A stretch of DNA of 23,655 nucleotides. Source: Minisyncoccota bacterium (lineage in GTDB: Bacteria > Patescibacteriota > Minisyncoccia > Minisyncoccales > Minisyncoccaceae). The translations under genes and the position numbers were made by a program. The notes under the pieces were generated by a model that saw only the letters and a list, made by a program, of their open reading frames with translations, was not told where the DNA came from and did no database searches. Where the stretch lies: assembly GCA_041649895.1 (NCBI GenBank), contig JBAZMG010000006.1, forward strand, positions 1 through 23,655, in the 5' to 3' direction. Below, in pieces: positions 79-17,810 of this stretch. Each line of letters begins with the position of its first letter. The first letter of the stretch is position 1.

Positions 79-152
79 CGGGATGTCATATAACGGCATT
101 ATGCAGGCTTCGGGAGTCTGTCATCTGGGTTCAATTCCCAGCATCCCGACCA
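79..152 (+). tRNA. tRNA-Pro (anticodon CGG), CCA encoded
   Basis: Manual cloverleaf: acceptor CGGGATG/CATCCCG (7 bp), anticodon stem CAGGC/GTCTG with loop TTCGGGA, T arm CTGGG-TTCAATT-CCCAG, discriminator A followed by CCA; 74 nt. Confidence 0.85.
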
Positions 153-413: not shown

Positions 414-484
414 GGATCCGTATTTCAGTGGTAGAATACTACCTTCACACGGTAGAGATATGAGTTCGATTCTCATCGGATCCA
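414..484 (+). tRNA. tRNA-Val (anticodon CAC), no encoded CCA
   Basis: Manual cloverleaf: acceptor GGATCCG/CGGATCC, anticodon stem CTACC/GGTAG with loop TTCACAC, T arm ATGAG-TTCGATT-CTCAT, discriminator A; 71 nt. Confidence 0.8.
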
Positions 485-501
485 CCCCGTACTAGAGTTT
501 T

Positions 502-667: not shown

Positions 668-683
668 AGTTCCACGTGGAACG
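668..683. promoter_or_regulatory. parS-like palindrome (variant)
   Basis: AGTTCCACGTGGAACG contains the perfect 14-bp palindrome GTTCCACGTGGAAC; 13/16 match to the chromosomal parS consensus TGTTNCACGTGAAACA. Confidence 0.5.
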
Positions 684-862
684 CCCGAAATTGGCTAAAA
701 TTACCCCTCTTCTACGTATTTATGCGACGAATGACTTGTCATTTTGAGGGAAGGCTTAATGGTTTTACATTTGCATTTCCTAAAATAACGTGGTCGTTAA
801 ATAACAGCACTCCCCTAGCCAATGATCAAATTGGGCTAATTACGACCAAAAATCAGTCAAAA

Positions 863-878
863 AGTTTCCCGTGAAACA
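863..878. promoter_or_regulatory. parS-like site
   Basis: AGTTTCCCGTGAAACA, 14/16 to the parS consensus. Confidence 0.6.
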
Positions 879-1029: not shown

Positions 1030-1045
1030 TGTTTCCCGTGAAACA
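1030..1045. promoter_or_regulatory. parS-like site
   Basis: TGTTTCCCGTGAAACA, 15/16 to the parS consensus TGTTNCACGTGAAACA. Confidence 0.65.
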
Positions 1046-1180: not shown

Positions 1181-1196
1181 TGTTTCACGGGAAACA
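1181..1196. promoter_or_regulatory. parS-like site (opposite orientation)
   Basis: TGTTTCACGGGAAACA is the exact reverse complement of the 1030 and 1523 sites. Confidence 0.65.
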
Positions 1197-1291
1197 TTTT
1201 GCCAAATTATGCAAAATTAAGGTCATTTAACATTTTTGACTAAATGTTATTGCAAAAACTTATCACTTCCCCAATTTTACCTAATGACCTT

Positions 1292-1485
1292 ATGTCCGCA
1301 TAAAGTGCTATTTTCTCTAAAAATGGCCGAAATGAGGTCATCTATGTTTTTTAGGGTAAAGATAAGTTGTTTTAATATGTTTTTACCAAATTATAGAGGT
1401 TGTCTATGTCCACATAATACCCCTTAAGTTCAGTCTACCAACCGGCGAATGTCCACATAAATGTCCACATAATTTATGCGGACAT
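1292..1485. promoter_or_regulatory. DnaA-box-like cluster I (5 boxes); candidate oriC left half or iteron set
   Basis: ATGTCC(A/G)CA at 1292, 1406, 1449, 1461 and inverted TGCGGACAT at 1477; extended 12-mer ATGTCCACATAA. Confidence 0.55.
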
Positions 1486-1522
1486 ACAACAAATATGCTT
1501 AGGAATGATAATTTTTTGCTAG

Positions 1523-1538
1523 TGTTTCCCGTGAAACA
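1523..1538. promoter_or_regulatory. parS-like site
   Basis: TGTTTCCCGTGAAACA, identical to the 1030 site. Confidence 0.65.
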
Positions 1539-1539
1539 C

Positions 1540-1750
1540 CCAAAAAATACACTTTAAAATTTTGGGGTGGACTATATGACTATCCCAATAAAATATCATT
1601 TAGAGGCTTATTTTTTATTTCCATACCCAATATTTTTGCTCACAGTGATGTTTTTTCTTTTTTAGCGGATTTGATATTTTATCAAAAATAAAGTATCAAA
1701 TTATACCTCAATATCTTAACAATAATCCTATTAACTCGCTTAATTTTACC
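1540..1750. other. AT-rich spacer between the box clusters; candidate DNA-unwinding region
   Basis: Long T/A runs (e.g. TTATTTTTTATTTCC, GTTTTTTCTTTTTTAG, TGATATTTTATCAAAAATAAAG); no ORF. Confidence 0.35.
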
Positions 1751-1753
1751 AAT

Positions 1754-1947
1754 ATGTCCGCAAAAATAGCTTATTACTTGATTTATGTCCGCATAAATGG
1801 CTATGTGGACATAAAAAAGCTATGTGGACAAATATGTGGACAAGTATCCCGAAATGTGGACAAATCCGGACATAGCTATGTCCACATAATGTCCGGATAT
1901 GTCCGCATAAATGTCCACATAATTTATGTGGACACGAATCCGGACAT
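1754..1947. promoter_or_regulatory. DnaA-box-like cluster II (13 boxes, both orientations)
   Basis: Three TGTGGACAA sites (1823, 1835, 1855) are the perfect complement of the DnaA-box variant TTGTCCACA. Further ATGTCC(A/G)CA or ATGTCCGGA variants and their complements start at 1754, 1785, 1804, 1865, 1878, 1889, 1899, 1911, 1927, 1939. Confidence 0.6.
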
Positions 1948-2047
1948 TCCAATGCCAACTAAAACATAAAAATGTATTATTTTTTAAATACTTAATGGAT
2001 GCGGATCGCTTTACGCTATTCATTAAAAATAATATAATTAAACCGAT

Positions 2048-2464
2048 ATGACCGCCGCTAATTCAAATCACAAGCTTCAGCTTGGGCAAATAGGGGAGAG
2101 TATAGCTCAAAAATACCTAATATCCAAGAAATACAAAATTTTGGATAAAAACTATTTTTTAAAGACCAAAACAAACCGCAAACTGGGAGAAATAGATCTT
2201 ATTGCCAAAAAGGGGAGTGTGTATGTTTTTATTGAAGTAAAAACAATAGCCGGCCGGGAGGGTAGGCGATTTCCACCCGCGGCAAAAATCAATCGTGTAA
2301 AAATAAAAAAGCTGATAAGGGTGGGGGAGAGCTGGCTTAAAAACCATAAACTTTCTTTGACTGTCCGGTGGCAAATTGATATAATTACTATTGAAATTGA
2401 CATTATTCGCAAAAAAGCCCTGGTCCGGCATTATGAAAACGCGATAGAAGATATTAAAAAATAA
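2048..2464 (+). CDS. yraN: YraN/UPF0102 family endonuclease-like protein
   Basis: 138-aa ORF with the family hallmark GEIDLIAKKGSVYVFIEVKT and typical size. Confidence 0.75.
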   Translation: MTAANSNHKLQLGQIGESIAQKYLISKKYKILDKNYFLKTKTNRKLGEIDLIAKKGSVYVFIEVKTIAGREGRRFPPAAKINRVKIKKLIRVGESWLKNHKLSLTVRWQIDIITIEIDIIRKKALVRHYENAIEDIKK

Positions 2465-2469
2465 ACTCT

Positions 2470-3102
2470 ATGCTTTCAAACCAAACTTTGCTGATCGTTT
2501 TAATTTTTTTCGGTTATCTTTTGGGTTCGATTCCGTTCGGATATCTTGTTGGAAAAATCAAAAATGTTGACATTAGGAAAAAAGGGAGTGGCGCCACAGG
2601 CGCGACCAACGTCTCCCGAACAGTGGGCTTTAAATATGCGATCTTGGTTGCGGCATTGGATATCGCTAAAGCGGTTCTACCTATATATATCGGGAGCCGT
2701 TTTTTTAATCCAAGCTGGAACGCAGATCCCGGGTGGCAAATGGCCCTAATCTCTATTGCTCCGGTATTAGGTCACATATTTCCAGTCTGGCTAAAATTCA
2801 AGGGAGGTAAGGGCGTGTCTGTTATCTTCGCTTGCATTATTATGGTAATGGGCTGGCAATACTCCTTAGTTCTTTTTGTCTTATGGCTGGCGCTCTTATT
2901 GCTTATAAAAACAATGAGTCTGACAAATATCTTAATTTTCCCGATTTTACCGTTCTTGTTTTGGTTCAGGACTCACTCTTGGGTGTATGTCTGGCTTGGT
3001 GTTTTTTATGTCCTTTTAATTTGGTGGGCGCATCGCGAGAATATAAAACGCATACGACAGGGGACTGAGCCGAAAACAATTCATAACAAAAATAAAGAAT
3101 AA
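2470..3102 (+). CDS. plsY: Glycerol-3-phosphate acyltransferase PlsY (acyl-phosphate dependent)
   Basis: 210-aa polytopic membrane ORF with GSIPFGYLVGK, GSGATGATNVSR and GHIFPVWLKFKGGKGV motifs. Confidence 0.85.
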   Translation: MLSNQTLLIVLIFFGYLLGSIPFGYLVGKIKNVDIRKKGSGATGATNVSRTVGFKYAILVAALDIAKAVLPIYIGSRFFNPSWNADPGWQMALISIAPVLGHIFPVWLKFKGGKGVSVIFACIIMVMGWQYSLVLFVLWLALLLLIKTMSLTNILIFPILPFLFWFRTHSWVYVWLGVFYVLLIWWAHRENIKRIRQGTEPKTIHNKNKE

Positions 3103-3320: not shown

Positions 3321-4205
3321 ATGAAAAAAACTATAAAAAAACAATTTGCGTTTACATTAATAGAACTGCTTATCGTTATCGCAATAATCGGAATACTCTC
3401 TGCGTTGATTATCGTGGGAATGAATAATGCAACCCAAAAAGCGACAATCGCCAAAGCGCAAGTATTTTCCAATTCACTCCGTAATTCTTTGATGTCTGGC
3501 TTGTTTGCCGAGTATAAGCTCGATGGCAACGCCAGCGACACGTGGGGGACACACACAGCCGGAACAATCAGCGGCGCATCATCTTATGCGTCCTGTATAC
3601 AAAATACTTGCTATAGTTTCGATAGCGATGATGATTATATTGAACTCGCGGATGTCGCGGATTTAAGAATGATAACCGGAGGGACTATTTCCGTTTGGAT
3701 TTATCCAAAAAGCTACGGAGAGGGCACTCTTGGAAGAATAATTGATAAGTCGTCTTCGGGCGATTCCGGTTTAGGTGGTTATACTTTTAGGAATAGTTCT
3801 CTTAATAGATTATTGTTCGTAATAAATGACGGCACCAACACACTTACTCAACAAAACGTAATAACTTATAATCAATGGCAACTTGTGACAACTACTTTTA
3901 ATGATTCCGGTAGAAAGATATACGTTAACGGAATTGATAAAACGGCATCCGGAGGTAATGAAACAGATCTACCTCCCGACAGTACGGGAATAGTGGTTAG
4001 AATTGGAAACTCCGCATATGGAACAACCAGAACTTTTGACGGATATATTGATGATGTTCAAATATATAATCAAGTAATTCCGACTTCCCAAATCCAACAA
4101 AATTACTACGCGGGACTCAACAAACTTTTTGCCAACAGGGGAGTGGAAATATCTGAATACCAACAATGCTTAACTGAATTATCAAACAATTACGCTCAAC
4201 AGTAA
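3321..4205 (+). CDS. Type IV pilin-like N-terminus + LamG/concanavalin-A-like domain protein (paralog 1 of 9, most divergent)
   Basis: MKKTIKKQFA|FTLIELLIVIAIIGILSALI prepilin-type motif with Glu+5; LamG-type hallmarks (YSFDSDDDYIEL, TISVWIYP, FDGYIDDVQIYN); shared C-terminal tail QNYYAGLNKLFANRGVEISEYQQ. Confidence 0.85.
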   Translation: MKKTIKKQFAFTLIELLIVIAIIGILSALIIVGMNNATQKATIAKAQVFSNSLRNSLMSGLFAEYKLDGNASDTWGTHTAGTISGASSYASCIQNTCYSFDSDDDYIELADVADLRMITGGTISVWIYPKSYGEGTLGRIIDKSSSGDSGLGGYTFRNSSLNRLLFVINDGTNTLTQQNVITYNQWQLVTTTFNDSGRKIYVNGIDKTASGGNETDLPPDSTGIVVRIGNSAYGTTRTFDGYIDDVQIYNQVIPTSQIQQNYYAGLNKLFANRGVEISEYQQCLTELSNNYAQQ

Positions 4206-4232
4206 TGTTTGGGTATTCGATACCCAAACATT
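4204..4232. repeat. Intergenic palindrome type 1 (13-bp arms) upstream of an A-type pilin gene
   Basis: AATGTTTGGGTAT-TCG-ATACCCAAACATT, starting inside the stop codon of paralog 1. Confidence 0.8.
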
Positions 4233-4237
4233 GAAAA

Positions 4238-5176
4238 ATGATGAATAGAAATATAAAAACAAATTTGGCATTTACATTGATAGAACTACTTGTGGTTATC
4301 GCAATCATCGGGATTTTATCTGCATTAATTATCATTGGGATGAGCTCGACAACACAGAAAGCTAGTGTTGCCAAGGCGCAGGTGTTTGCCAATTCTTTGC
4401 GCAATTCATTGATGGCGGATATGGTTTCTGAGTGGAAGCTTGATGGAAACACCAATGATACTTGGGCGGCCTCATTTGCAAACAACGGAACCTGGTGGGG
4501 AACGACCGCGCCGAATACCGTCGCAACCTATGGAACTGCGTCCGAATGCGTTTCCGGACAATGTATGGATTTTGATGGCGTGGATGATATGGTGGACTTT
4601 GGGAGCAACGCTTCTTTATCTATGGGAACAAAAGATCACACAGTCTCTTTATGGGTTAAGTTTGATAATGCGACCGCAACAGACATAGACACATTGGTTA
4701 TCTGTGGAGCAATGACGGGAACAGGGAAAGATGGGTATTGGATTACAAGACTTACCGATAGATTATACTTTTATTTTACTGATGGAGAAGGAGCAAATAC
4801 AAGAATTGCCGGCTATTTATCCGCAGCCGGAACATTAATTGCTAATAATTGGTATCAAATAACCGTAACTATGGATAGGGACGGAAATGTAACGGGATAT
4901 ATAAACGGAACATCGCAAATAAGTTGGGCTATTTCTCCTCAGCCTGGAGACGTACAAAATTCCATAAGCTTTCGAATGGGAGCTTTTACTACATCCCTGT
5001 ATCGTCTCGCCGGTAAAATGGATGAAGTGAGAATTTTTCACGCTATTACGACAATATCTCAAATAGAGCAAAACTACTTCGCGGGACTGAACAAACTTTT
5101 TGCCAACAGGGGAGTGGAAACATCAGAATACCAACAACGCTTAACTGAATTATCAAACAATTACGCACGGGATTAA
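4238..5176 (+). CDS. Pilin-like + LamG-domain protein (paralog 2, subtype A); real start may be the second ATG at 4241
   Basis: M(M)NRNIKTNLA|FTLIELLVVIAIIGILSALI; EWKLDGNTNDTW...CMDFDGVDDMVDFG...TVSLWVKFDNA...GKMDEVRIFHAI; preceded by palindrome 4204-4232. Confidence 0.85.
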   Translation: MMNRNIKTNLAFTLIELLVVIAIIGILSALIIIGMSSTTQKASVAKAQVFANSLRNSLMADMVSEWKLDGNTNDTWAASFANNGTWWGTTAPNTVATYGTASECVSGQCMDFDGVDDMVDFGSNASLSMGTKDHTVSLWVKFDNATATDIDTLVICGAMTGTGKDGYWITRLTDRLYFYFTDGEGANTRIAGYLSAAGTLIANNWYQITVTMDRDGNVTGYINGTSQISWAISPQPGDVQNSISFRMGAFTTSLYRLAGKMDEVRIFHAITTISQIEQNYFAGLNKLFANRGVETSEYQQRLTELSNNYARD

Positions 5177-5206
5177 AATGTTTGGGGGTTAAACCCCCAA
5201 ACATTT
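5176..5206. repeat. Intergenic palindrome type 2 (13-bp arms)
   Basis: AAATGTTTGGGGG-TTAAA-CCCCCAAACATTT. Confidence 0.8.
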
Positions 5207-5213
5207 AAAAACG

Positions 5214-6104
5214 ATGAATAGAAATATAAAAACAAAATTGGCATTTACATTGATTGAGCTACTTGTGGTAATTGCAATCATCGGGATTTTATCCGCTTTG
5301 ATCATTATTGGGATGAGCTCGACAACGCAGAAAGCAAACATTGCAAAATCACAAATATTTGCCAATTCTTTGCGCAATTCATTGATGGGGGACATGGTTT
5401 CGGAGTGGAAGCTTGACGAAGGAGCTGGCGATACAATATCTGATACGTGGGGCAGCAATAATGGAACAAAAGCTGGGGCAACATGGGAAGCAATAACAAC
5501 CAACTGCGTCTACGGCAAGTGCTTATCTTTTGATGGTGATGCTGATAATATAAATTTCGGAAATAAAACTGATTTTAATTTGGCTAGCACAAGCCACACT
5601 ATTTCGGTTTGGTTTAAAACAAGTACGACAACTACTGACCATATAATTAGTCGCTTTAACGGCGGAAGTCCCGGCGCTGGATATGTTATTTTTGTGTCCT
5701 CTGGAAAGGTTTGTTTTTCGGAAAGAGCAGACGGGGGAGACTTTCTTGCCCGCGATTCAGCGCTAACCTACAATGATAATTCTTGGCATTTTGTAACTTA
5801 CACGGTTGATATTTCTTTAAAAACAGGGAGGTTTTGCATTGATGGAACTTTTTTGCCCCTGGATACTTATACTGGAAACTTAATAAATTATAATAATAAT
5901 TTATATATCGGTGGACCACAGGTAGGATACTATTTTACTGGCCTAATAGACGATATACGCATATATGATGCCGCAATGCCAGCTTTCCAAATCAACGAAC
6001 AATATTACACCGGATTGAATAAACTTTTGGCAAACAGGGGAGTGGAAACATCTGAATACGAGCAAAGAATCGTAGAATTAAATTATAATTATGCAGAAAA
6101 TTAA
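5214..6104 (+). CDS. Pilin-like + LamG-domain protein (paralog 3, A-type leader, divergent body)
   Basis: MNRNIKTKLA|FTLIELLVVIAIIGILSALI; CLSFDGDADNINFG...TISVWFK...FTGLIDDIRIYDAAM; preceded by palindrome 5176-5206. Confidence 0.85.
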   Translation: MNRNIKTKLAFTLIELLVVIAIIGILSALIIIGMSSTTQKANIAKSQIFANSLRNSLMGDMVSEWKLDEGAGDTISDTWGSNNGTKAGATWEAITTNCVYGKCLSFDGDADNINFGNKTDFNLASTSHTISVWFKTSTTTTDHIISRFNGGSPGAGYVIFVSSGKVCFSERADGGDFLARDSALTYNDNSWHFVTYTVDISLKTGRFCIDGTFLPLDTYTGNLINYNNNLYIGGPQVGYYFTGLIDDIRIYDAAMPAFQINEQYYTGLNKLLANRGVETSEYEQRIVELNYNYAEN

Positions 6105-7047
6105 AATTAACGCATTTACATTGATAGAACTACTTGTGGTTATTGCAATCATCGGAATTTTATCTGCTTTAATTGTTATCGGGATGAGCTCGACAACGCA
6201 AAAAGCCAGTGTTGCAAAAGCGCAAGTATTTGCGAATTCTCTGCGCAATTCGTTGCTGGCGGATATGGTTTCGGAGTGGAAATTGGATGACGGGACTGGA
6301 AACAGCACCACAAAAGATTCCTGGGCTTCGGCTTTTGCCAATACGGGGACCTTGGGAACAGCGGCAGTAGGGGATGCAAGCGAGCCCACATGGCTAAGTA
6401 CCGGTTGTGTTTCCGGAAACTGTCTTTCGTTTGACGGCGCTGATGATTATGTTGATTTCGGAAATAATGCGTCCCTATCAATGGGAACTAAAGATCATAC
6501 TGTATCACTCTGGGTTAAGTTTGATAATGCAACAGCGCCCGCTCCTAATAATGCGGAAACGCTGGCTCGTTGTGGGGTCCAAGCTGCCGGAGTTGGGCGG
6601 GATGGATATTGGATTTATAGGACTGGGAGTAGTCTATTTTTTTATTTTTCTGATGGTTCGGCGGATAGCATAGGCGGCTCATTATCAGGGTCCGGGACAC
6701 TAATAGCTAACACTTGGTATAACATAGTTGTTGCACTCGATAGAGATATTTCTGCCTATATGTATATAAATGGAGTTAAACAAACAGGCTACTCATTAAA
6801 TATCGTACCACAAAATGGAGACGTACAAAATACATCCTTGTTAATGATTGGGGCAACTTCAGCTGGCTATGGTCGGCTTGACGGTCAAATGGATGAGGTA
6901 AGAATCTTTCACGCTATTACGACAATATCTCAAATAGAGCAGAACTACTTTGCCGGACTGAACAAACTTTTGGCAAACAGGGGAGTGGAAACGTCTGAAT
7001 ATGAGCAAAGAGTCGCGAATTTAACTTCAAACTATGCAAAGAATTAA
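6091..7047 (+). CDS. Pilin-like + LamG-domain protein (paralog 4, subtype B)
   Basis: MQKIKINA|FTLIELLVVIAIIGILSALI; EWKLDDGTGNSTTKDSWAS...CLSFDGADDYVDFG; ATG lies inside the previous gene's NYAEN-stop codons (14-nt overlap). Confidence 0.85.
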   Translation: MQKIKINAFTLIELLVVIAIIGILSALIVIGMSSTTQKASVAKAQVFANSLRNSLLADMVSEWKLDDGTGNSTTKDSWASAFANTGTLGTAAVGDASEPTWLSTGCVSGNCLSFDGADDYVDFGNNASLSMGTKDHTVSLWVKFDNATAPAPNNAETLARCGVQAAGVGRDGYWIYRTGSSLFFYFSDGSADSIGGSLSGSGTLIANTWYNIVVALDRDISAYMYINGVKQTGYSLNIVPQNGDVQNTSLLMIGATSAGYGRLDGQMDEVRIFHAITTISQIEQNYFAGLNKLLANRGVETSEYEQRVANLTSNYAKN

Positions 7048-7978
7048 AATTAACGCATTTACTTTGATAGAACTGTTGGTTGTAATAGCGATCATCGGTA
7101 TTTTATCTGCGTTGATTGTTGTGGGTATGAGCTCGGCGACGCAGAAAGCCAGTGTTGCAAAAGCGCAAGTATTTGCTAATTCTTTGCGGAATTCCTTAAT
7201 GGCGGATATGGTTTCCGAATGGAAATTAGATGACGGAACCGGAAACAGCACAACGAAAGATTCCTGGGCTTCGACTTTTACTAATACCGGGACACTGGGG
7301 ACTGCGACGGTAGGGGATGCAAGCGAGCCCACATGGCTAAGTACTGGTTGCGTTTCTGGAAACTGTCTATCTTTCGATGGAGCTGACGACTATGTTAATT
7401 TTGGCAATAACGCTTCATTGAGTATGGGAACAAAAGATCACACAATATCTTTATGGGTTGAATTTATTAATCCAACGGCACTGCAAGATGAAACAATGAT
7501 TCGCACGGGAGCTGGCGGTAGTGGAGCTGGCTATTGGATTTATAGATTTACCGGAACAAATAAATTAAGGTTTCTTTTTCATGACGGAGTTGGTTCGCAG
7601 GCATCCGGATATTTGTCGGCGGATGGCACATTAGTTGCTGGTATTTGGTATAATATAGCTATAATAATGGATAGGGATTCCAATGCCCAAGCTTATATAA
7701 ACGGGCAAATACAAACCAGTTACCCAATAGTTATATCTGGAAACCAAGGAACTATACAAAATGTTACAAATCTAATGGTTGGAGCGCAAGACGCGTCAAC
7801 ACGACGGCTTACCGGCAAAATGGATGAAGTAAAAATATTTCACGCAATACCGTCAATCTCCCAAATTCAACAAAACTATTACGCCGGACTGAACAAACTT
7901 TTGGCAAAAAGAGGGGTGGAAACATCAGAATATGAGCAAAGAGTCGCGGATTTAATTTCAAACTACGCAAAAGAATAA
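7034..7978 (+). CDS. Pilin-like + LamG-domain protein (paralog 5, subtype B)
   Basis: MQRIKINA|FTLIELLVVIAIIGILSALI; same architecture; 14-nt overlap with paralog 4. Confidence 0.85.
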   Translation: MQRIKINAFTLIELLVVIAIIGILSALIVVGMSSATQKASVAKAQVFANSLRNSLMADMVSEWKLDDGTGNSTTKDSWASTFTNTGTLGTATVGDASEPTWLSTGCVSGNCLSFDGADDYVNFGNNASLSMGTKDHTISLWVEFINPTALQDETMIRTGAGGSGAGYWIYRFTGTNKLRFLFHDGVGSQASGYLSADGTLVAGIWYNIAIIMDRDSNAQAYINGQIQTSYPIVISGNQGTIQNVTNLMVGAQDASTRRLTGKMDEVKIFHAIPSISQIQQNYYAGLNKLLAKRGVETSEYEQRVADLISNYAKE

Positions 7979-8005
7979 TGTTCGGGTATTCGATACCCAG
8001 ACATT
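7977..8005. repeat. Intergenic palindrome type 1 (one mismatch, one G-U)
   Basis: AATGTTCGGGTAT-TCG-ATACCCAGACATT. Confidence 0.75.
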
Positions 8006-8010
8006 GAAAA

Positions 8011-8955
8011 ATGATGAATAGAAATATAAAAACAAATTTGGCATTTACGTTGATTGAGCTATTGGTCGTAATAGCGATTATTGGTATTCTTTCGGCTTTG
8101 ATCGTTATTGGGATGAGCTCGACAACTCAAAAAGCTAGTGTTGCCAAGGGCCAAGTATTTGCTAATTCTTTACGCAATTCGTTAATGTCAGATATGGTCT
8201 CGGAGTGGAAATTGGATGGAAACACTAACGACACTTGGGCGGCCTCGTACGCGAACAACGGAACTTGGTCAGGTCCAACCGCGCCAAACACAGTCGCTAC
8301 TTATGGACCGGCAGCTGAATGCGTTTCCGGACAATGTATGGATTTTGATGGAGTGGACGATTTAGTTGATTTTGGAAATAACGCTTCGCTATCAATGGGA
8401 ACAAAAGATCACACAGTCTCTTTATGGATTAAGTTTGACAATGCAACAGCCCCACAACACGAAGTTTTGATTATTAGTGGCGGCAACATTGTTGCTCCTG
8501 GATATGCTGGTTATGATATTTTAAGATACACCGGAATGAGTCGACTATATGTTGAATTTTCCGATGGCTCGGCAAATAATGTCGGTGCCTATTTATCCGC
8601 ATCGGGAACATTAGTATCTAATATTTGGTATAATATAGTAGTAATTTTTGACAGAGACGGAGTTGCCAAGGCATATATTAACGGATTGTCACAGGCGGGA
8701 ACATTAAATATATCGGTTCAACCGGGCAATGTACAAAATATTTACAACTTAAGGTTGGGGGCGTGGACACCGTCCCAATTTCGTCTTGCTGGTAAAATGG
8801 ATGAAGTGAGAATATTTCACGCGATAACAACACTTTCCCAAATTCAGCAAAACTACTACGCGGGACTGAACAAGCTTTTTGCAAACAGGGGAGTGGAAAC
8901 ATCCGAATATCAACAAAGGATCGTAGAATTAAATTCGAATTATGCAAAGAATTAA
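8011..8955 (+). CDS. Pilin-like + LamG-domain protein (paralog 6, subtype A); start may be 8014
   Basis: M(M)NRNIKTNLA|FTLIELLVVIAIIGILSALI; N-terminal ~150 aa near-identical to paralog 2; preceded by palindrome 7977-8005. Confidence 0.85.
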   Translation: MMNRNIKTNLAFTLIELLVVIAIIGILSALIVIGMSSTTQKASVAKGQVFANSLRNSLMSDMVSEWKLDGNTNDTWAASYANNGTWSGPTAPNTVATYGPAAECVSGQCMDFDGVDDLVDFGNNASLSMGTKDHTVSLWIKFDNATAPQHEVLIISGGNIVAPGYAGYDILRYTGMSRLYVEFSDGSANNVGAYLSASGTLVSNIWYNIVVIFDRDGVAKAYINGLSQAGTLNISVQPGNVQNIYNLRLGAWTPSQFRLAGKMDEVRIFHAITTLSQIQQNYYAGLNKLFANRGVETSEYQQRIVELNSNYAKN

Positions 8956-9895
8956 AATCAACGCATTCACATTAATAGAACTACTTGTGGTTATTGCAAT
9001 CATCGGGATTTTGTCTGCATTAATTATCATTGGGATGAGCTCGACAACACAGAAAGCTAGTGTTGCCAAGGCGCAAGTGTTCGCTAATTCTCTACGTAAT
9101 TCATTGATGTCGGATATGGTTTCGGAGTGGAAGCTTGATGATGGGACAGGAAACAGCACAACGAAAGATTCCTGGGCTTCGACTTTTACAAATACGGGGA
9201 CCTTGGGAACCGCAGCAGTGGGGGATGCAAGCGAGCCCACATGGCTAAGTACTGGTTGCGTTTCCGGAAACTGTCTTTCTTTTGACGGCACCGACGATTA
9301 TGTTGATTTTGGGAGCAATGCGTCTTTATCTATGGGGACTAAAGACCATACTGCGTCATTCTGGGTTAAATTTGATAATGCGGTAGCAATAGAAAATAAT
9401 ACACTGATTAAATGCGGGGCCTTCGGCGCCTCTCTTGGATCAGACGGATACTGGCTTGTTAGATTAAACGGTACAAACAAACTATATTGTTATTTCTCCG
9501 ACGGAGAAACAACAACATTGCTTGGTAATTATTTATCCGCGGATGGTTCTTTGGTTGCCGATACTTGGTACAATATTGTTGTAATGTTCGACAGGAGCGG
9601 AGTGGCTCAAGCATACATAAATGGCGTAATACAATCAGGAACACTAAACATATCATCACAAACAGGAGACGTGCAAAATAGTAGAAGTTTTACTATTGGA
9701 GCCTGGTCAGCAACACTACATCGATCCGCTGGCAAAATGGACGAAGTACGAATATTCCACGCGATTACGACACTTTCTCAAATTCAACAAAACTACTTCG
9801 CAGGACTGAACAAACTTTTGGCTAATGGGGAAGTGGAAACATCAGAATACCAACAACGCTTAACTGAATTATCAAACAATTACGCACGGGATTAA
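8942..9895 (+). CDS. Pilin-like + LamG-domain protein (paralog 7, subtype B N-terminus with the paralog-2 type C-terminus)
   Basis: MQRIKINA|FTLIELL...; the last 64 nt of the CDS plus the downstream hairpin are 100% identical to 5113-5210. Confidence 0.85.
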   Translation: MQRIKINAFTLIELLVVIAIIGILSALIIIGMSSTTQKASVAKAQVFANSLRNSLMSDMVSEWKLDDGTGNSTTKDSWASTFTNTGTLGTAAVGDASEPTWLSTGCVSGNCLSFDGTDDYVDFGSNASLSMGTKDHTASFWVKFDNAVAIENNTLIKCGAFGASLGSDGYWLVRLNGTNKLYCYFSDGETTTLLGNYLSADGSLVADTWYNIVVMFDRSGVAQAYINGVIQSGTLNISSQTGDVQNSRSFTIGAWSATLHRSAGKMDEVRIFHAITTLSQIQQNYFAGLNKLLANGEVETSEYQQRLTELSNNYARD

Positions 9896-9925
9896 AATGT
9901 TTGGGGGTTAAACCCCCAAACATTT
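9895..9925. repeat. Intergenic palindrome type 2 (identical to 5176-5206)
   Basis: AAATGTTTGGGGG-TTAAA-CCCCCAAACATTT. Confidence 0.8.
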
Positions 9926-9931
9926 AAAACA

Positions 9932-10870
9932 ATGAATAGAAATATAAAAACAAAATTGGCATTTACATTGATAGAATTATTGGTCGTGATTGCAATCATC
10001 GGGATACTTTCGGCTTTGATCATTATTGGGATGAGTTCGACGACACAGAAAGCTAGTGTTGCCAAATCGCAGGTGTTTGCCAATTCATTGCGCAATTCTT
10101 TGATGGCGGATATGGTTTCAGAATGGAAATTGGACGGGAATACTAACGATACTTGGGCGTCTTCAAATGCGAACAACGGAACGTGGTCGGGACCAACCGC
10201 GCCGAATGCCGTCGCTACTTACGGGACGGCAGCCGAATGCGTCTCCGGACAATGTATGGATTTTGACGGTGTGGATGATGTAGTTGATTTTGGAAATAAC
10301 GCTTCGTTATCAATGGGAACAAAAGATCACACAGTCTCTATTTGGGTTAAATTCGATAACGCATCACCCCCAACAGAAGAAGAAACATTAATTTTTTGCG
10401 GCGGAACAGTGGCCGCGACAGAAGGCTATTGGATCAGGAGACAAATTGGAGGAACAGGAATTTATTTTTGTTTTAACGATGGCTCGGCAACAAGGGCTAA
10501 CGGTGCTTTATCAGCGAACGGAACTTTAATTAATAATATTTGGTATAATATAGTAATAACAATGGACAGAGATTCTAATGCCCAAGCATATATAAATGGA
10601 CAAAAACAAACTGGTTATGTTGTTAGTCTCTCCTCTTGGCAAACCGACATACAGAATACTTATAATTTCCAAATTGGTGGATTTGGAGCTGTTTATACAA
10701 TGGCGGGAAAAATTGATGAAGTAAGAATATTCAATGCGATAACAACACTTTCTCAAATTCAACAAAATTACTTTGCAGGACTGAACAAACTTTTTACCAA
10801 CAAGGGAGTGGAACCGTCTGAATACCAAAAAGAGGTCACGAATTTAATTTCAAACCATGCAAAGAATTAA
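9932..10870 (+). CDS. Pilin-like + LamG-domain protein (paralog 8, subtype A)
   Basis: MNRNIKTKLA|FTLIELLVVIAIIGILSALI; preceded by palindrome 9895-9925. Confidence 0.85.
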   Translation: MNRNIKTKLAFTLIELLVVIAIIGILSALIIIGMSSTTQKASVAKSQVFANSLRNSLMADMVSEWKLDGNTNDTWASSNANNGTWSGPTAPNAVATYGTAAECVSGQCMDFDGVDDVVDFGNNASLSMGTKDHTVSIWVKFDNASPPTEEETLIFCGGTVAATEGYWIRRQIGGTGIYFCFNDGSATRANGALSANGTLINNIWYNIVITMDRDSNAQAYINGQKQTGYVVSLSSWQTDIQNTYNFQIGGFGAVYTMAGKIDEVRIFNAITTLSQIQQNYFAGLNKLFTNKGVEPSEYQKEVTNLISNHAKN

Positions 10871-11816
10871 CAAAGCATTTACATTAATTGAGCTATTGGT
10901 TGTGATAGCGATTATTGGTATTCTTTCGGCTTTGATCGTTATTGGGATGAGCTCAACAACACAGAAAGCCAGTGTTGCCAAGGCGCAAGTGTTTGCGAAT
11001 TCTCTGCGCAATTCGTTGCTGGCGGATATGGTTTCGGAGTGGAAATTGGATGACGGGACTGGAAACAGCACCACAAAAGATTCGTGGGCTTCGGTTTATG
11101 CCAATACGGGAACATTGGGAACAGCGGCGGTGGGGGACGCGAGCGAGCCAACATGGCTAAGTACCGGTTGCGTTTCCGGAAACTGCCTTGATTTTGACGG
11201 CGCTGACGATTATGTTGATTTTGGAAGCAATGCGTCTTTATCTATGGGGACTAAAGACCATATTGCGTCATTCTGGGTTAAATTTGATAATGCAGTGGCG
11301 GGCGCGCAACCCGAAACGCTAATAGTTTGCGGTTCAGTTACCGGTGGGGCGACTGGAGACGATGGTTATTGGATTGTACGCTATCAAGGAACAAGCAAAA
11401 TAAGAGGATATTTTTCTGATGGTTCGGCGGCATATATCGGCGGAGATTTATCTGCTAATAGTGTTTTTGTCGCTAATACTTGGTATAACATAGTAACAAC
11501 TTTTGATAGAGATGGAGTTGTTCAGGCATATGTTAATGGATTAAAACAAACGGGTTATTCAATAAACATTGCTCCTCAACAAGGAGATGTACAAAATTAT
11601 ATGAATTTGCGAATTGGAGCCTATTCGGCAACCGGACACCGTCTCGATGGTCAAATGGATGAGGTAAGAATCTTTCACGCCATAACAACGCTGTCTCAAA
11701 TAAAGCAAAACTATTACGCAGGACTGAACAAACTTTTTGCCAAAAACTCCCTAAATAGGGTAGAATATGAGTATAGGATGGCGGAATTACAAACTTCATC
11801 TTTAGCAAACAAATGA
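10857..11816 (+). CDS. Pilin-like + LamG-domain protein (paralog 9, subtype B, divergent C-terminal tail)
   Basis: MQRINKA|FTLIELLVVIAIIGILSALI; 14-nt overlap with paralog 8; its TGA stop overlaps the next gene's ATG (ATGA at 11813-11816). Confidence 0.85.
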   Translation: MQRINKAFTLIELLVVIAIIGILSALIVIGMSSTTQKASVAKAQVFANSLRNSLLADMVSEWKLDDGTGNSTTKDSWASVYANTGTLGTAAVGDASEPTWLSTGCVSGNCLDFDGADDYVDFGSNASLSMGTKDHIASFWVKFDNAVAGAQPETLIVCGSVTGGATGDDGYWIVRYQGTSKIRGYFSDGSAAYIGGDLSANSVFVANTWYNIVTTFDRDGVVQAYVNGLKQTGYSINIAPQQGDVQNYMNLRIGAYSATGHRLDGQMDEVRIFHAITTLSQIKQNYYAGLNKLFAKNSLNRVEYEYRMAELQTSSLANK

Positions 11817-13189: not shown

Positions 13190-15001
13190 TTGATATTTAT
13201 GGATACAATAACGTACAAAGAACTACAAAAAATGATCCTCTTTTCCGGGGAGAGGGTTAATAGAGATAAAGAACAAATAAACAAGATCAATGTATTTCCG
13301 GTTCCGGACCAGGACACGGGCTCTAATTTGGCTGCGACATTAAAGGGAATAAAAGAAGCGATTGAAGGCAAAGAATTCGGCTCAATGGAAGAATTCGCGA
13401 ACACCGTTTTGGACAGCGCCCTGACTGCGGCGCAAGGCAATGCCGGAATTATTTACACCGGATTTTTGGCCGGGTTTTTGCCCGCGATAAGCGACGTGGA
13501 AGAAGTTGATGCCAAAAAGCTTGGCAATGCTTTTAAGCTCGGATACGAGCGAGCAAAAGACTCAATCCAAAATCCGAAAGAGGGAACTATTTTAGATGTT
13601 GTCCACGCTTTTGCCGAAACTTTTAACGAGTTATCAGAAGAAAAAGAAGATATCATCGAAATATTTTACGAATCTTTCGGGAAGGCCAACCAGGCCCTGC
13701 TTGATACGCCGAATAAAATGGAATTACTGAAAAAGGCCGGCGTGGTTGATGCCGGGGGATTGGGATTTTTAATGATCCTTGAAACCTACCTTGATACGCT
13801 AAAGGAACAGACCGTGGAAAAGGTCGCGGCAAAACCCTTCCTTGCTCCGGGCGAAGAATCAGCCACGAGAAAGTTCGTCCAAATTCTATCAAACCGATAC
13901 GAAGTGGTCGCCCTGTTGGCAAATCCGAACTTAAAAGAAAAAGAGATCAGGGACAAACTGAAAAATCTGGGCAATTGCCTTGATATTATCCAAATCGCGA
14001 ACCGAATAAAGATACACATCCACACCGATGACCCTTATGAGACCAGAGATATTATTTCCAATATGGGTACGGTCGAAAATCTGAGAATTCAGGATATGGC
14101 GAGGGAAGTGGTGGGAGAAGAGTCGATGGAAAACGTTTCCATCGGCATTGTAATCGATGAACGCGCGGGATTGAGCCAAAAAATAATCCAGCATTATGAT
14201 ATTGAAGTAATCCCGTTCCGTATCACCTGGCCGGAAGAACAAAACTTGCCCGGGCACAACGTGTGCGAAAAAATAAAAGAAGCGAAAAAGAAGGGATTGA
14301 ACACCAAACCGAAGATCTCTTCCATTTCTCCGGAATTCTTTATGGAATCGTACAAAAAACAATTGGAAAAATTTGAAACTATTATCTGCATTGTCAGTAG
14401 CTCCAAACTTTCCGACAACTACAATTCCGCCCTGAAAGCGCGGGAAATGCTAAATTGGAATATGAGAGAAAGGGTTTTTGTCGTTGATTCGAAAAACATC
14501 AGCGCCGGACAATCCCTTGTGGTTTTGGAAGCGATCGAGCTCATCCGGGAACAGAGAAAAATAAAAGAAATAAAAGAACGCTTGGAAGTGGCGATTCCTC
14601 AGATCAATCTGCTCGGCATTTTAAAAAACGCGGCGTGGTGGAAAAAAGACAATCCGACCGCGAAGTTTTGGTTTACCAAAGAAAAACCGCAAGATTCTTT
14701 TTGGCTCATAGAAACAAAAGATGGAAAAATCAATCCAACGGAAAAAGTAAGATCAAATGATTTCGCCGACGTCTTGTTCAAAAAAATAGAACGGGCCGCG
14801 CGAAGAGACTTGCGAGAAGGTAAAAAGATCAGAGTGGTTATCGCGCACGCCGACAGCCTGGATCAAGCGGAAAAGCTCAAAGAAAAATTAAAGACCACGA
14901 AACGGGCTGATATTTCCTTTATCAGTATCACAGATCCGGTCACAAGCATAAACGCTTGCCCGGACAGCCTTATAGTGGCGTGGATCGTTCACCCGAGTTA
15001 A
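13190..15001 (+). CDS. DAK2-domain protein of the YloV/FakA (fatty acid kinase) type with a C-terminal DegV-like domain; start may be 13199
   Basis: NVFPVPDQDTGSNLAATL and KKAGVVDAGGLGFLMILE (Dak2/YloV hallmarks). The C-terminal half (from VSIGIVIDERAGL) is paralogous to the two downstream DegV genes. Confidence 0.75.
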   Translation: MIFMDTITYKELQKMILFSGERVNRDKEQINKINVFPVPDQDTGSNLAATLKGIKEAIEGKEFGSMEEFANTVLDSALTAAQGNAGIIYTGFLAGFLPAISDVEEVDAKKLGNAFKLGYERAKDSIQNPKEGTILDVVHAFAETFNELSEEKEDIIEIFYESFGKANQALLDTPNKMELLKKAGVVDAGGLGFLMILETYLDTLKEQTVEKVAAKPFLAPGEESATRKFVQILSNRYEVVALLANPNLKEKEIRDKLKNLGNCLDIIQIANRIKIHIHTDDPYETRDIISNMGTVENLRIQDMAREVVGEESMENVSIGIVIDERAGLSQKIIQHYDIEVIPFRITWPEEQNLPGHNVCEKIKEAKKKGLNTKPKISSISPEFFMESYKKQLEKFETIICIVSSSKLSDNYNSALKAREMLNWNMRERVFVVDSKNISAGQSLVVLEAIELIREQRKIKEIKERLEVAIPQINLLGILKNAAWWKKDNPTAKFWFTKEKPQDSFWLIETKDGKINPTEKVRSNDFADVLFKKIERAARRDLREGKKIRVVIAHADSLDQAEKLKEKLKTTKRADISFISITDPVTSINACPDSLIVAWIVHPS

Positions 15002-15051
15002 ACAATTTTGCTTTGCAAAATTAGCGCATAGCGCTGTTTAACCGGGTAAAA

Positions 15052-15086
15052 TAAGAATAAAGAATCAGGAATCAAGAATTAAGAAT
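15052..15086 (+). repeat. Five in-phase heptamer repeats NARGAAT upstream of the first degV gene
   Basis: TAAGAAT AAAGAAT CAGGAAT CAAGAAT TAAGAAT. Confidence 0.7.
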
Positions 15087-15132
15087 AAAAACAGGGAACG
15101 ATTCCAATTCATAAAAATTAGATATTAAATCA

Positions 15133-16026
15133 ATGGAAACAGAAAACCAAAACAAAAAATTAATTGGCATCGTGGCCGACGAGGCCGTTGACCTGCCTGA
15201 TTCAATTGTACAAGAAAACGAGATATCGCTCGTAAAATTCAAATTGGATTTCGAAGAACTAAAGGATGTTCCCGGCAATGTTTATGAAAAAATGCGCGAG
15301 GGAGAGAGAAGGGGACTCAAGACCATTGCCAAGACATCACAACCATCCATTAATGACTTTTTAGGCGCGTACCGGGAAAAACTGAAAAGATTTGAAGAGA
15401 TAATTTGCTTCACCATATCGGGAAAACTATCAGGAACTTTTAACTCCGCTTTACAGGCAACAAAATTTTTACCAAAAGAAGCCCAAGATAAAATTCATCT
15501 GGTTGATACATTGAACGCAACCGGGGGAGAAGGTCTTGTAGCTTTGTGGGCAGCCGATATGATCAAAGAAGCAAAATTGAAAGCCGGAGAGATCGCGGAA
15601 ACAATACGGAAAAATGTTTCCAATTTCAAACTGATCGGGATCTATGGAACACCGAAATGGCTTGAAGCGAGCGGACGCTTGCCAAAATTTTTGCCGGCAC
15701 CCTTGAGGCAAGCGGAAAAAATGAACCTCAAGCCTATTTTTGCCCTGAAAAACGGAAAGATTACTTTTATAAGCATTCGAAAAAACTTAAATGGCATCGC
15801 GAATACTCTATTCCAAGAGTTTGAAAAGCAAACTCTGGCGGCGCGCAATCAAGGAAAAAAGATCAGAGCCGCGATCACTCACGGCGACAACCCGGCTGGA
15901 GCGGAAGAACTGAAAAATTTGGTCTCAAGTTTGGAAAATGTAAAAGTGGAGTTTATAAGCCTGGCTTGTTTTCCGATCGGAGGACATGTCGGCCCGGAAT
16001 CATTAGTGCTTTCCTGGCAACAATAA
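15133..16026 (+). CDS. DegV family fatty-acid-binding protein (FakB-like)
   Basis: IGIVADEAVDLP, TSQPSINDFLGAY, ISGKLSGTFNSALQA; 297 aa. Confidence 0.85.
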   Translation: METENQNKKLIGIVADEAVDLPDSIVQENEISLVKFKLDFEELKDVPGNVYEKMREGERRGLKTIAKTSQPSINDFLGAYREKLKRFEEIICFTISGKLSGTFNSALQATKFLPKEAQDKIHLVDTLNATGGEGLVALWAADMIKEAKLKAGEIAETIRKNVSNFKLIGIYGTPKWLEASGRLPKFLPAPLRQAEKMNLKPIFALKNGKITFISIRKNLNGIANTLFQEFEKQTLAARNQGKKIRAAITHGDNPAGAEELKNLVSSLENVKVEFISLACFPIGGHVGPESLVLSWQQ

Positions 16027-16096
16027 CCCCCACCTTTTTAAAAAAGATGGGGGCAAAAAAGAATAAAAATAAAGAAACACTAATTGCATAAAATAT

Positions 16097-16972
16097 ATGA
16101 GTATCAAAATCATCGTAGGCGAAAGCGCCCCCACGACTCCGGATATTGTGGCAAAGTACGGTTTTGCGACCGTACCGTTTAAGATCGATTGGCCCGAGTT
16201 CGACACCATTAAGGGCAATACGCTTTTTCAAAAAATGCGCGAAGCGAAAAAGCAAGGCATCAAAACCACCCCCAAAACTTCTCAGCCGTCTATAGGCATA
16301 TACAAAAAAGCTTTTGACGAAGCCCTTGTCGACAACGAATATATTCTCGCGATCACTATCAGCTCCGGCATCTCGGGAACTTACAACTCCGCCATTCAAG
16401 CAAAAAAGATGTTCAGTGAAGACGCGCAAAAAAAGATCTATGTTTTTGATACATTTAACGCCGATGCCGCGGAAAGCTTGTTTGCCATTAAAGCGGGGGA
16501 TATGGCGGTGCAAGAAAAGACCATTGATGAAGTAATGGCAAAATTGGAAGAATTAAAACCATCAGCCAAACTGTACGGATTTTTGGACGACCCTTATTGG
16601 CTTGAGGCCGGAGGCAGGATCAGCCATGCCGTAGCCGTAATAATGGCGCAAATGCAAAAGATCGGAATGCGGCCTCTTTTGTCAATGAAAGACGGGGTTG
16701 TTAAGCCGGCGAATCTGAAAATGCAAGCCAAGGACACGGCCGATGCTTTGTTTAAACAGCTGGAAAGCATTGTAAAAGATCCTCTCGCGGACGGGAAAAA
16801 GGTAAGCGTTGCCATAAGCCACGCGGACAATCCCGGAGAGGCCGAAAACTTGAAAAAAATGATCGAAGAAAAATATCCTAGCGCTAAAATAGAATTCGTG
16901 ACCGAGACCGGTCCGGTGATCGGCGCGCACATCGGACCCGGATCATTAATTTGCTGCTGTTTAATAGATTAA
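16097..16972 (+). CDS. DegV family fatty-acid-binding protein (FakB-like), second paralog
   Basis: TSQPSIGIYKKAF, ISSGISGTYNSAIQA, GPVIGAHIGPGS; 291 aa. Confidence 0.85.
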   Translation: MSIKIIVGESAPTTPDIVAKYGFATVPFKIDWPEFDTIKGNTLFQKMREAKKQGIKTTPKTSQPSIGIYKKAFDEALVDNEYILAITISSGISGTYNSAIQAKKMFSEDAQKKIYVFDTFNADAAESLFAIKAGDMAVQEKTIDEVMAKLEELKPSAKLYGFLDDPYWLEAGGRISHAVAVIMAQMQKIGMRPLLSMKDGVVKPANLKMQAKDTADALFKQLESIVKDPLADGKKVSVAISHADNPGEAENLKKMIEEKYPSAKIEFVTETGPVIGAHIGPGSLICCCLID

Positions 16973-17105: not shown

Positions 17106-17810
17106 ATGATCTTTAATTTAATTGCGATCGCTTTAATTTCTTACATTCTGGGATCAATTCCTTTTTCTCTGGTTTTTGTCAAATTGTTTACGAAAAAAAA
17201 CCTGCACGAACTGGGATCAAAAAACGCAGGAGCATTAAATACCCTGAGGATCGTTGCCAAAGAAAAAGGGAAGGTTTGGGGCGTCTTATCTTTTCTTTTG
17301 GTCGGAATTCTGGACGCAAGCAAGGGTGTTTTCGCCGTCTTAATCGCCAAAAGTTATTTTTTCCCGATTCTTTTGCAAACATCAGCGGAAATAACAATGC
17401 CCTGGCCGACCATTGTCGCCATTATCGCGTTCTTTGCCGTACTCGGACACAATTATTCCATTTTCTTAAAATTCAAGGGTGGAAGAGGGGCTGCCACCTT
17501 ATTTGGTATTCTTTTGTATTTAAACGTTACGGCAGCTCTCGGTATTCTCGGCTTTGTTCTTTTGTTTATTTTTTTAGGAGAACTGCTGGCCGGACACAAA
17601 TTAAACAAAAAATTCGTAAGCGCCGCGATATCAAACCAGATCATTGGCCGGCTTTTGGGAGAAATTGTCGGGCTGTTCTGGATGTACACTATTGATCCTA
17701 TGGTGTTTTATATCGCCGCTTTGCCGATTGTATTAATTGTTTTCGCGCACAAAGACAGGCTTGACGAACAAATTAAAAAGATCAAAGATAAAACCTATCT
17801 AAAAGATTAA
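17106..17810 (+). CDS. plsY: PlsY-family acyltransferase paralog 2 (divergent)
   Basis: LGSIPFSLVFVKL, GSKNAGALNTLR, LDASKG, GHNYSIFLKFKGGRGAAT; 234 aa. Confidence 0.7.
   Translation: MIFNLIAIALISYILGSIPFSLVFVKLFTKKNLHELGSKNAGALNTLRIVAKEKGKVWGVLSFLLVGILDASKGVFAVLIAKSYFFPILLQTSAEITMPWPTIVAIIAFFAVLGHNYSIFLKFKGGRGAATLFGILLYLNVTAALGILGFVLLFIFLGELLAGHKLNKKFVSAAISNQIIGRLLGEIVGLFWMYTIDPMVFYIAALPIVLIVFAHKDRLDEQIKKIKDKTYLKD

Follow-up and report, generated by a model that had tools for sequence, protein, structure and literature searches.

In Escherichia coli the chromosomal origin of replication, oriC, is situated in the gidA-mioC locus roughly 40 kb from dnaA and presents helically phased arrays of DnaA boxes in opposing orientations. 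A rearrangement separated this origin from dnaA (PMC8287927). Here we describe a locus of similar general plan, a box cluster with a flanking candidate unwinding element tens of kilobases away from a dnaA gene in its ancestral rpmH/dnaA-dnaN context, in a bacterium labelled Candidatus Paceibacterota, a member of the Candidate Phyla Radiation (CPR). The stretch analysed (hereafter 'the window') covers 23.6 kb at one end of a metagenomic contig of 32,764 nt, its position 1 being the contig end, and we consider it likely that the region at ~1290-1950 is the DnaA-dependent chromosomal oriC of this organism, with a parS array at 669-1538 in the same locus. Unlike E. coli oriC, it has the box consensus (A/T)TGTCC(A/G)CA rather than TTATCCACA, tRNA genes and yraN as neighbours, and a bipartite layout (tripartite in relatives) of at least 18 boxes with a parS site embedded.

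Two box clusters with intervening DNA and unwinding beside one of them are also characteristic of Helicobacter pylori oriC1/oriC2 and Bacillus subtilis incA/B and incC (PMC8287927, PMC3479198). The halves of those origins flank dnaA, whereas here they are separated by a 270-bp spacer, and in relatives of the window organism a third cluster is set off by tRNA genes, a GIY-YIG gene and the parS array; both model origins furthermore possess DnaA-trios, of which none were detected at the yraN-linked locus. Actinobacterial origins (Streptomyces, Mycobacterium) share the high-affinity box TTGTCCACA and the large number of boxes, but they lie at dnaA-dnaN, whereas the present locus belongs to a low-GC CPR host in which ATGTCCRCA is the dominant variant. 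Origin-proximal box clusters away from dnaA are exemplified by E. coli datA and DARS and by the DnaA-box clusters (DBCs) of B. subtilis; these do not require an unwinding element beside them, nor do they centre on a switch in gene orientation, and the yraN-linked locus has both. Origin-proximal parS/ParB centromeres, including parS in Vibrio cholerae ori2, likewise have 16-bp sites that match TGTTNCACGTGAAACA and cluster at the origin, but here a non-coding stretch of ~700 bp accommodates four to five sites, of which one lies between a box cluster and the presumed unwinding element. The iteron origins of plasmids and phages also combine short repeated sites with an AT-rich segment; iterons, however, are typically direct repeats of 17-22 bp beside a rep gene, whereas the core here measures 8-9 bp, occurs in both orientations and is surrounded by chromosomal housekeeping genes.

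Precedents exist for an origin remote from dnaA, for a bipartite layout, for TTGTCCACA boxes and for parS close to the origin, and the general picture of bacterial initiation is unchanged; the most unusual aspect is the tight interleaving of parS with DnaA boxes. Our literature search found no dissection of an origin from the CPR/Patescibacteria, in which dnaA serves as a proxy for the origin (PMC12102498). For the clade considered here the best candidate is not dnaA but a tRNA- and yraN-linked, parS-flanked box cluster ~36 kb away from it. Its box consensus and architecture could be used for genome rotation, closure checks and growth-rate analyses based on iRep or peak-to-trough ratios (PTR); the locus also offers a compact test case for the interplay of DnaA and ParB, and a fragment of ~700 bp is suited to in vitro tests with DnaA.

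DnaA-box-like repeats and their conservation

The motif ATGTCCRCA has 11 exact matches in the window, on both strands and all within 1292-1919, compared with an expectation of 0.23 and a maximum of two in 100 shuffles. The 8-mer TGTCCRCA is similarly confined (15 of 15 window copies at 1293-1934). Relaxing the definition to (A/T/G)TGTCC(A/G)(C/G)A takes in the TGTCCGGA variants at 1865, 1890 and 1939 and brings the total to 18, with five boxes at 1292-1485 and 13 at 1754-1947; the remaining TGTCCGGA copies in the window occur only inside paralogous pilin-like genes (4553, 8326 and 10244). The original prediction, a candidate oriC without an adjacent dnaA, had been made from the sequence of the window and had counted the same 18 boxes. 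This total stands, as does its division into 5 and 13, but it requires A, T or G to be allowed at position 1 and GGA at positions 7-9, whereas the strict motif ATGTCCRCA splits into 5 left and 6 right. Other parts of the description were borne out in full: the three copies of TGTGGACAA at 1823, 1835 and 1855, the AT-rich segment between the clusters, the adjoining parS array, tRNAs to the left and yraN to the right, and right-hand genes that are without exception on the + strand. Neither dnaA nor dnaN, which it had found to be out of view, is present in the window or elsewhere on its contig. The 12-mer ATGTCCRCATAA, tested as a dispersed repeat, is not dispersed over the contig: all nine copies fall within the region, so extending 9 of the 18 boxes.

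The boxes occupy part of a 1.56-kb stretch of non-coding DNA that separates the tRNA-Val gene from yraN and also holds the parS-like array (Table 1). Neighbouring boxes of the right cluster are mostly spaced by 10-13, 19-20 or 31 bp, that is by approximately whole helical turns, and a 36-nt unit is duplicated between the two sides (1449-1484 and 1899-1934). A permissive-threshold Rfam scan of positions 1-2100 returned the tRNAs and chance hairpin matches to inverted boxes, and nothing else.

Relatives were found through YraN homologues and by scanning metagenomes for the box pair TGTGGACAAAYATGTGGACAA. Five lineages were compared, namely the window, L005 (GCA_002421745.1), L009 (JGI Ga0265297_10000246), L022 and L029, the YraN proteins of the last four being 51-58% identical to that of the window; L140 is a close relative with 89% identity in YraN. 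Clusters of TGTCCRCA are located directly upstream of yraN in L005, L009, L022, L029 and L140. Wherever the flank is visible the order is the same: parS, a left cluster of two to three boxes, an AT-rich spacer of 250-320 bp, a right cluster and yraN. By the definition used for the window the right cluster has seven boxes in L005, seven in L009 and 11 in L029, and more under the looser core TGTCC(A)(C). The sole invariant block of the five-way alignment, TATGTGGACAAAYATGTGGACAA-N9-TGTGGACAA.T..GGACA, comprises four boxes at spacings of 12/20/10 in otherwise unalignable surroundings. Equivalents of the left triplet border the spacer in L009 and L029, with a degenerate version in L005. L005 and L009 have a third box cluster upstream of tRNA-Pro (8180-8225 and 8163-8290, respectively), the equivalent of which would lie beyond the contig end in the window. 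Logos drawn for each lineage have only the core (A)TGTCC(A)(C) in common; the TAA extension, found in the window alone, probably arose incidentally through local duplication such as that of the 36-nt unit.

At closer range, box positions are 94% identical between the window and L140 and parS positions 98%, as against 56-91% by segment, or 79% pooled, for the other intergenic DNA (Fisher p = 3e-7). All 13 boxes of the right cluster are unchanged; one box of the left triplet has undergone turnover. By this comparison the boxes and the parS sites are under purifying selection, which is strong in the case of the box clusters. L140 carries a mutated version of the outlying box at 1292, which for this reason is probably dispensable.

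Several lines of evidence lead us to read the repeats as DnaA boxes, to which DnaA would bind. Three of the window boxes are exact copies of TTGTCCACA, the DnaA box of actinobacteria. Two high-GC contigs, L026 and L028, carry an identical 21-nt tandem pair, TTGTCCACA-TRT-TTGTCCACA, at a distance of ~370 bp on the downstream side of dnaA, in L026 as part of a four-box cluster in the dnaA-dnaN intergenic region, and arrays on other contigs interleave TTGTCCACA with the canonical TTATCCACA. The clade also encodes a canonical four-domain DnaA, which is full-length in L053 (E = 6e-114 to B. subtilis DnaA, 8BTG); dnaA is incomplete in L051 and L055, where it runs off the end of the locus or contig.

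Similar boxes were encountered in other settings. IMG/VR contigs L058, L086, L096, L128 and L135 carry 11-14 boxes per 500 bp, with TTGTCCACA and TTATCCACA mixed and no dnaA nearby; such arrays on viral-classed contigs could be phage origins that use the host DnaA, or arrays that titrate it. The scan of viral contigs revealed nothing that resembles the yraN-linked locus. A scan of a genome collection with ATGTCCRCATAAATGTCCRCATAA found only a simple 12-bp tandem array in two termite-gut contigs of metagenome-assembled genomes (MAGs) binned as Methanomassiliicoccaceae. In these contigs, L003 (1300-1365) and L004 (1695-1742), the 12-mer TGTCCACATAAA, the same as that of the window, is repeated in tandem at least five times directly downstream of a 620-aa gene; these arrays are otherwise unrelated to the locus.

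The spacer and the parS array

A nearest-neighbour duplex-stability scan was carried out over the whole of each locus (window, L005, L009 and L029). In each of these four lineages the 100-bp segment of lowest computed stability falls in the spacer and stops 7-37 bp short of the right cluster, on its left (9676-9775 in L005, 9636-9735 in L009 and 398-497 in L029, reverse complement; Table 1 for the window). Such a stability minimum, here a computed property only, is what is expected of a DNA-unwinding element.

The parS-like sites of the array are 16-bp inverted repeats that match TGTTNCACGTGAAACA and cluster near the presumed origin. Four window sites have 0-1 mismatch to TGTTTCCCGTGAAACA, itself one change off a palindrome, and a search with TGTTTCCCGTGAAACA gave eight strand-wise matches where 0.27 were expected. 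The perfect palindrome TGTTCCACGTGGAACA occurs four to five times in each relative with a visible flank, and in L005, L009 and L029 a parS site is located 10-45 bp from the left cluster. No parAB genes were found in the DNA retrieved, which is only a fraction of the genome. The four main copies in the window share one asymmetric A-to-C change (TGTTTCcCGTGAAACA) that is also seen in L140, whereas distant relatives use TGTTCCACGTGGAACA and the older palindromic form survives in the window once, at 669. This suggests that the parS sites have changed in concert, possibly together with ParB.

Other repeats are found among the parS sites. An element ACGTATTTATGCGACGAATGAC-TT-GTCATT with an inverted repeat opens the array in the window (712-745), in L005 (~8840-8880) and in L009 (~8985-9025), and a second, inverted copy lies within the L009 spacer (~9585-9625). 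Degenerate repeats such as AGGTCATCTATGTTTTTTAG interleave with parS at 927-959, 1220-1252 and 1335-1367 (D5, D9, D13), and the units around each parS also repeat, as at 861-903 and 1028-1070; relatives carry a repeated unit of their own in the array, ...GTGACTTTTTTGACCAAATGAC.... The array looks as if it had been built from a duplicated unit of ~150-170 bp, or as if it contained sites for a further protein.

In the mechanism that we propose, DnaA would bind the high-affinity boxes (A/T)TGTCCACA and then fill the helically phased weaker boxes (TGTCCGCA, TGTCCGGA) of the 13-box right and the 3-box left cluster. It would melt the AT-rich spacer at ~1648-1747, abutting the right cluster, and the forks would run outward, co-oriented with the - strand genes to the left, as seen in relatives, and the + strand genes to the right. 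The parS sites would load ParB, so that origin and centromere form one compact locus, while dnaA would stay away from oriC in its ancestral rpmH/dnaA-dnaN context. The position of one parS between the left triplet and the presumed unwinding element, in both the window and L005, brings a bolder version to mind, a single fused origin-centromere module spanning two tRNA genes in which ParB-parS directly gates or positions melting by DnaA without canonical trios. We regard this extension as rather doubtful; if true, it would physically couple initiation and segregation in ultra-small CPR cells.

Position of dnaA and competing explanations

The lineage of L009 could be followed through KsgA and a TrbL-like protein as far as dnaA, yielding a composite of 47 kb. 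Its gene order is yraN, plsY, carS-like, mscS-like, fakA, two degV, two plsY, a type IV secretion system (T4SS) pilin gene, rpsO, pnp, comM and ksgA, followed by a type IV secretion cluster, jag-yidC-rnpA (-) and dnaA (+). There is room for rpmH beside rnpA, and rpmH is called in L053 and L055. The start of dnaA lies 36.5 kb from the right box cluster, in the usual rpmH/dnaA context. The window matches this order as far as ksgA and has an extra 8.5 kb of pilin-like genes, and on these grounds we would place the dnaA gene of the window organism ~45 kb to the right. Outside the clusters the 7-mer TGTCCAC occurs only once in the 47-kb composite, inside fakA; no repeated box is present in the rpmH-dnaA intergenic regions of L051, L055 and L053, nor between dnaA and dnaN in L053, which is more distantly related and has both of these genes complete. 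The type IV secretion cluster between ksgA and jag-yidC-rnpA-rpmH/dnaA (TrbL-like, TraC-like and VirB4-like proteins) is found in three lineages, at 10001-19384 in L051 and in L053 and L055, in agreement with the T4SS genes reported near dnaA in Patescibacteria (PMC12102498).

Gene orientation changes at the locus. To the left in L005 and L009, the - strand carries the genes for ClpP, trigger factor, NusA and a large surface protein; next come the genes for the CCA-adding enzyme and GIY-YIG, both on the + strand, and past the cluster there are at least 15 + strand genes. At the cluster the cumulative GC skew dips to a local minimum, at 10027 in L009 and at 2183 in the window.

We interpret the region as oriC because of the enrichment, conservation, selection and identity of the boxes, the unstable spacer, the parS sites, the orientation of the genes and the lack of an array in the dnaA-flanking DNA inspected. 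As a proposal for an origin without an adjacent dnaA, the original prediction is strengthened by the five-lineage conservation, by selection, spacer, parS and gene divergence, and by the distance of dnaA, which proved to be 36.5 kb in the lineage where it could be reached; we regard it as probable. The GC-skew test that it called for, run on 47 kb, gave an ambiguous answer, with a local minimum at the cluster and a second, deeper one at dnaA.

That second minimum heads a list of observations that weigh against an origin at this locus. Over the 47 kb the cumulative skew rises to ~24 kb and then falls to its deeper minimum at dnaA. Skew at third codon positions (GC3) is conflicting, since the between-strand comparison favours an origin to the right and the within-strand comparison weakly favours the yraN-linked locus; on the coding strand, GC3 skew to either side of the cluster is higher in - strand than in + strand genes. 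At the 47-kb scale skew is governed by the strand of the genes, and we regard it as uninformative there. A scan for the basal unwinding system by published rules (at least three DnaA-trios that follow a DnaA box after no more than 16 bp; PMC8287927) found no box with four or more trios within 16 bp in the five lineages, and runs of at least three trios were at or below shuffle expectation; by these rules the canonical system is not evident. Trios are missing from 15% of genomes (PMC8287927) and therefore do not strictly define an oriC. Complete genomes of Nealsonbacteria in which yraN has a homologue lack both boxes and parS near that gene, so that the yraN-linked arrangement is confined to one Paceibacterota clade. 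The dnaA-dnaN intergenic DNA inspected is that of L053 and not of the closest lineages, and coverage amounted to ~5-10% of any related genome, so that further box clusters could lie elsewhere.

The deeper skew minimum at dnaA, the higher GC3 skew of the - strand genes across the whole region, the missing trios and a dnaA-dnaN region that in the closest lineages falls outside the DNA covered are also the arguments for a DnaA-box cluster with a titrating or regulatory role, like E. coli datA/DARS or the B. subtilis clusters, in the origin-proximal part of the chromosome, the true oriC being elsewhere, for example at dnaA-dnaN ~38 kb off. We consider this main rival unlikely, given that in all four lineages scanned for stability the bipartite array, of 18 or more boxes, encloses the segment where the locus is least stable, which titration loci do not need, that the inspected dnaA-flanking intergenic regions are without a box array, and that the parS array and the divergent gene orientation centre on the yraN-linked locus. 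The repeats might instead be iterons for a Rep-type initiator, as had been suggested alongside the origin, or sites for a dimeric helix-turn-helix protein that recognises the pseudo-palindrome TTATGT-CC-ACATAA. The extension of half the window copies to ATGTCCRCATAA, the two-fold symmetry of TATGT..ACATA and the variation at positions 7-8 (ACA/GCA/GGA), usually strongly conserved in DnaA boxes, would fit such a protein. The extension is specific to one lineage, however, and in relatives the conserved part is no more than (A)TGTCC(A)(C); across lineages each box strictly keeps its orientation, both orientations being represented, and its central CC/GG, which points to asymmetric recognition; and the same box pair is found elsewhere in dnaA-linked clusters of oriC type. 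Pfam and NCBIfam scans of the neighbours detected no Rep-family gene, with relatives covered to 10 kb on the left and 31-37 kb on the right, the neighbours are housekeeping genes in conserved synteny, and blastn gave no match among 72,556 PLSDB plasmids. Iterons are accordingly very improbable.

An operator for the yraN-plsY-fakA/degV lipid operon, acted on by DnaA as a transcription factor or by another regulator, would be compatible with origin function. DnaA does regulate promoters, such as that of gidA-parAB in Pseudomonas aeruginosa (PMC13438810), and just 100 bp, which include a promoter-like site, separate the end of the right cluster from yraN downstream. At least 18 sites over 650 bp, an unstable spacer and embedded parS nevertheless exceed what an operator needs, relatives have further clusters up to 1.8 kb upstream, and the cluster is kept in L022 and L029 although the gene after yraN differs there and plsY is absent; as the sole explanation an operator strikes us as highly implausible. 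Public annotation (ENA) calls a gene in the repeats themselves, a 71-aa open reading frame (ORF) at 1754-1969 whose sequence is the box array. The ORF is probably spurious, because it is made of the array, has no Pfam match and has no counterpart called at the equivalent place in L005 and L009. With boxes on both strands and outside the ORF, and with 0 of 100 shuffles reaching the observed count, we give practically no credence to the repeats being coding sequence or a product of chance. A DnaA-dependent oriC thus remains the reading that we prefer.

Neighbouring genes and further repeats

Table 1. Features of the presumed origin region, in window coordinates.
Feature	Position	Strand	Remarks
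tRNA-Pro(CGG)	79..152	+	Left edge of origin region; ARAGORN, Rfam
tRNA-Val(CAC)	414..486	+	ARAGORN; followed by terminator-like hairpin at ~484-563 (inverted repeats I5, I23)
parS-like perfect palindrome GTTCCACGTGGAAC	669..682		Form used in relatives
parS-like site AGTTTCCCGTGAAACA	863..878	+	Identical in L140
parS-like site TGTTTCCCGTGAAACA	1030..1045	+	Single substitution in L140, the sole change among 64 parS positions
parS-like site TGTTTCCCGTGAAACA	1181..1196	-	Inverted; identical in L140
Outlying box ATGTCCGCA	1292..1300	+	ATGACCGCA in L140
Box ATGTCCACA	1406..1414	+	Retained in L140
Left cluster	1449..1485		Direct boxes at 1449 and 1461, inverted box at 1477
AT-rich spacer between box clusters	1486..1753		GC ~0.28
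parS-like site TGTTTCCCGTGAAACA	1523..1538	+	Inside bipartite region, 38 bp from left box triplet
Candidate DNA-unwinding element	1648..1747		Lowest-stability 100 bp in the entire 23.6-kb window
Right cluster, 13 boxes	1754..1947		Orientations + +, - - - - -, + + + +, - -
Invariant core TATGTGGACAAATATGTGGACAA-N9-TGTGGACAAATCCGGACA	1821..1873	-	Four boxes, start-to-start 12/20/10
Promoter-like site TTTACG-17-TATAAT for yraN	2010..2038	+	Downstream of boxes; consensus match only
yraN (UPF0102)	2048..2464	+	Conserved right neighbour; opens long run of + strand genes

To the right of the origin region lies a conserved lipid-scavenging block, with three PlsY paralogues (2470-3102, 17106-17810 and 17815-18483) and genes for a FakA-DegV fusion, two DegV proteins and a CarS-like protein of the CDP-archaeol synthase family within 13190-16972. 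In the window, positions 3321-11816 are taken up by nine tandem paralogues of ~295-320 aa that are pilin-like, with an N-terminal methylation motif and a Laminin_G_3/concanavalin-like domain. These are missing from L005 and L009, where plsY directly precedes the carS-like gene, and the pilin-like block is therefore a lineage-specific expansion adjoining the origin region.

Independent assemblies break inside the region, among them those of the window, of L002, which starts at window position 558, and of L006-L008, L010 and L140. These breaks are likely due to tRNA-linked and parS-linked repeats, so that in MAGs of the clade the origin region tends to lie at contig ends.

Downstream of tRNA-Pro the window contains two tandem units of 115 nt (153-385), which are also present in L005 (8300-8545) and absent from L009. 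Each unit ends in a copy of the T-arm and the 3' strand of the acceptor of tRNA-Pro (AATTCCCAGCATCCCGAC). The units have no Rfam match at E <= 1. Their consensus fold consists of a 9-bp closing stem and two hairpins, with compensatory double changes at 11 of 30 pairs among four copies from two lineages, and they could represent a new tRNA-linked structured RNA or a T-loop insertion element.

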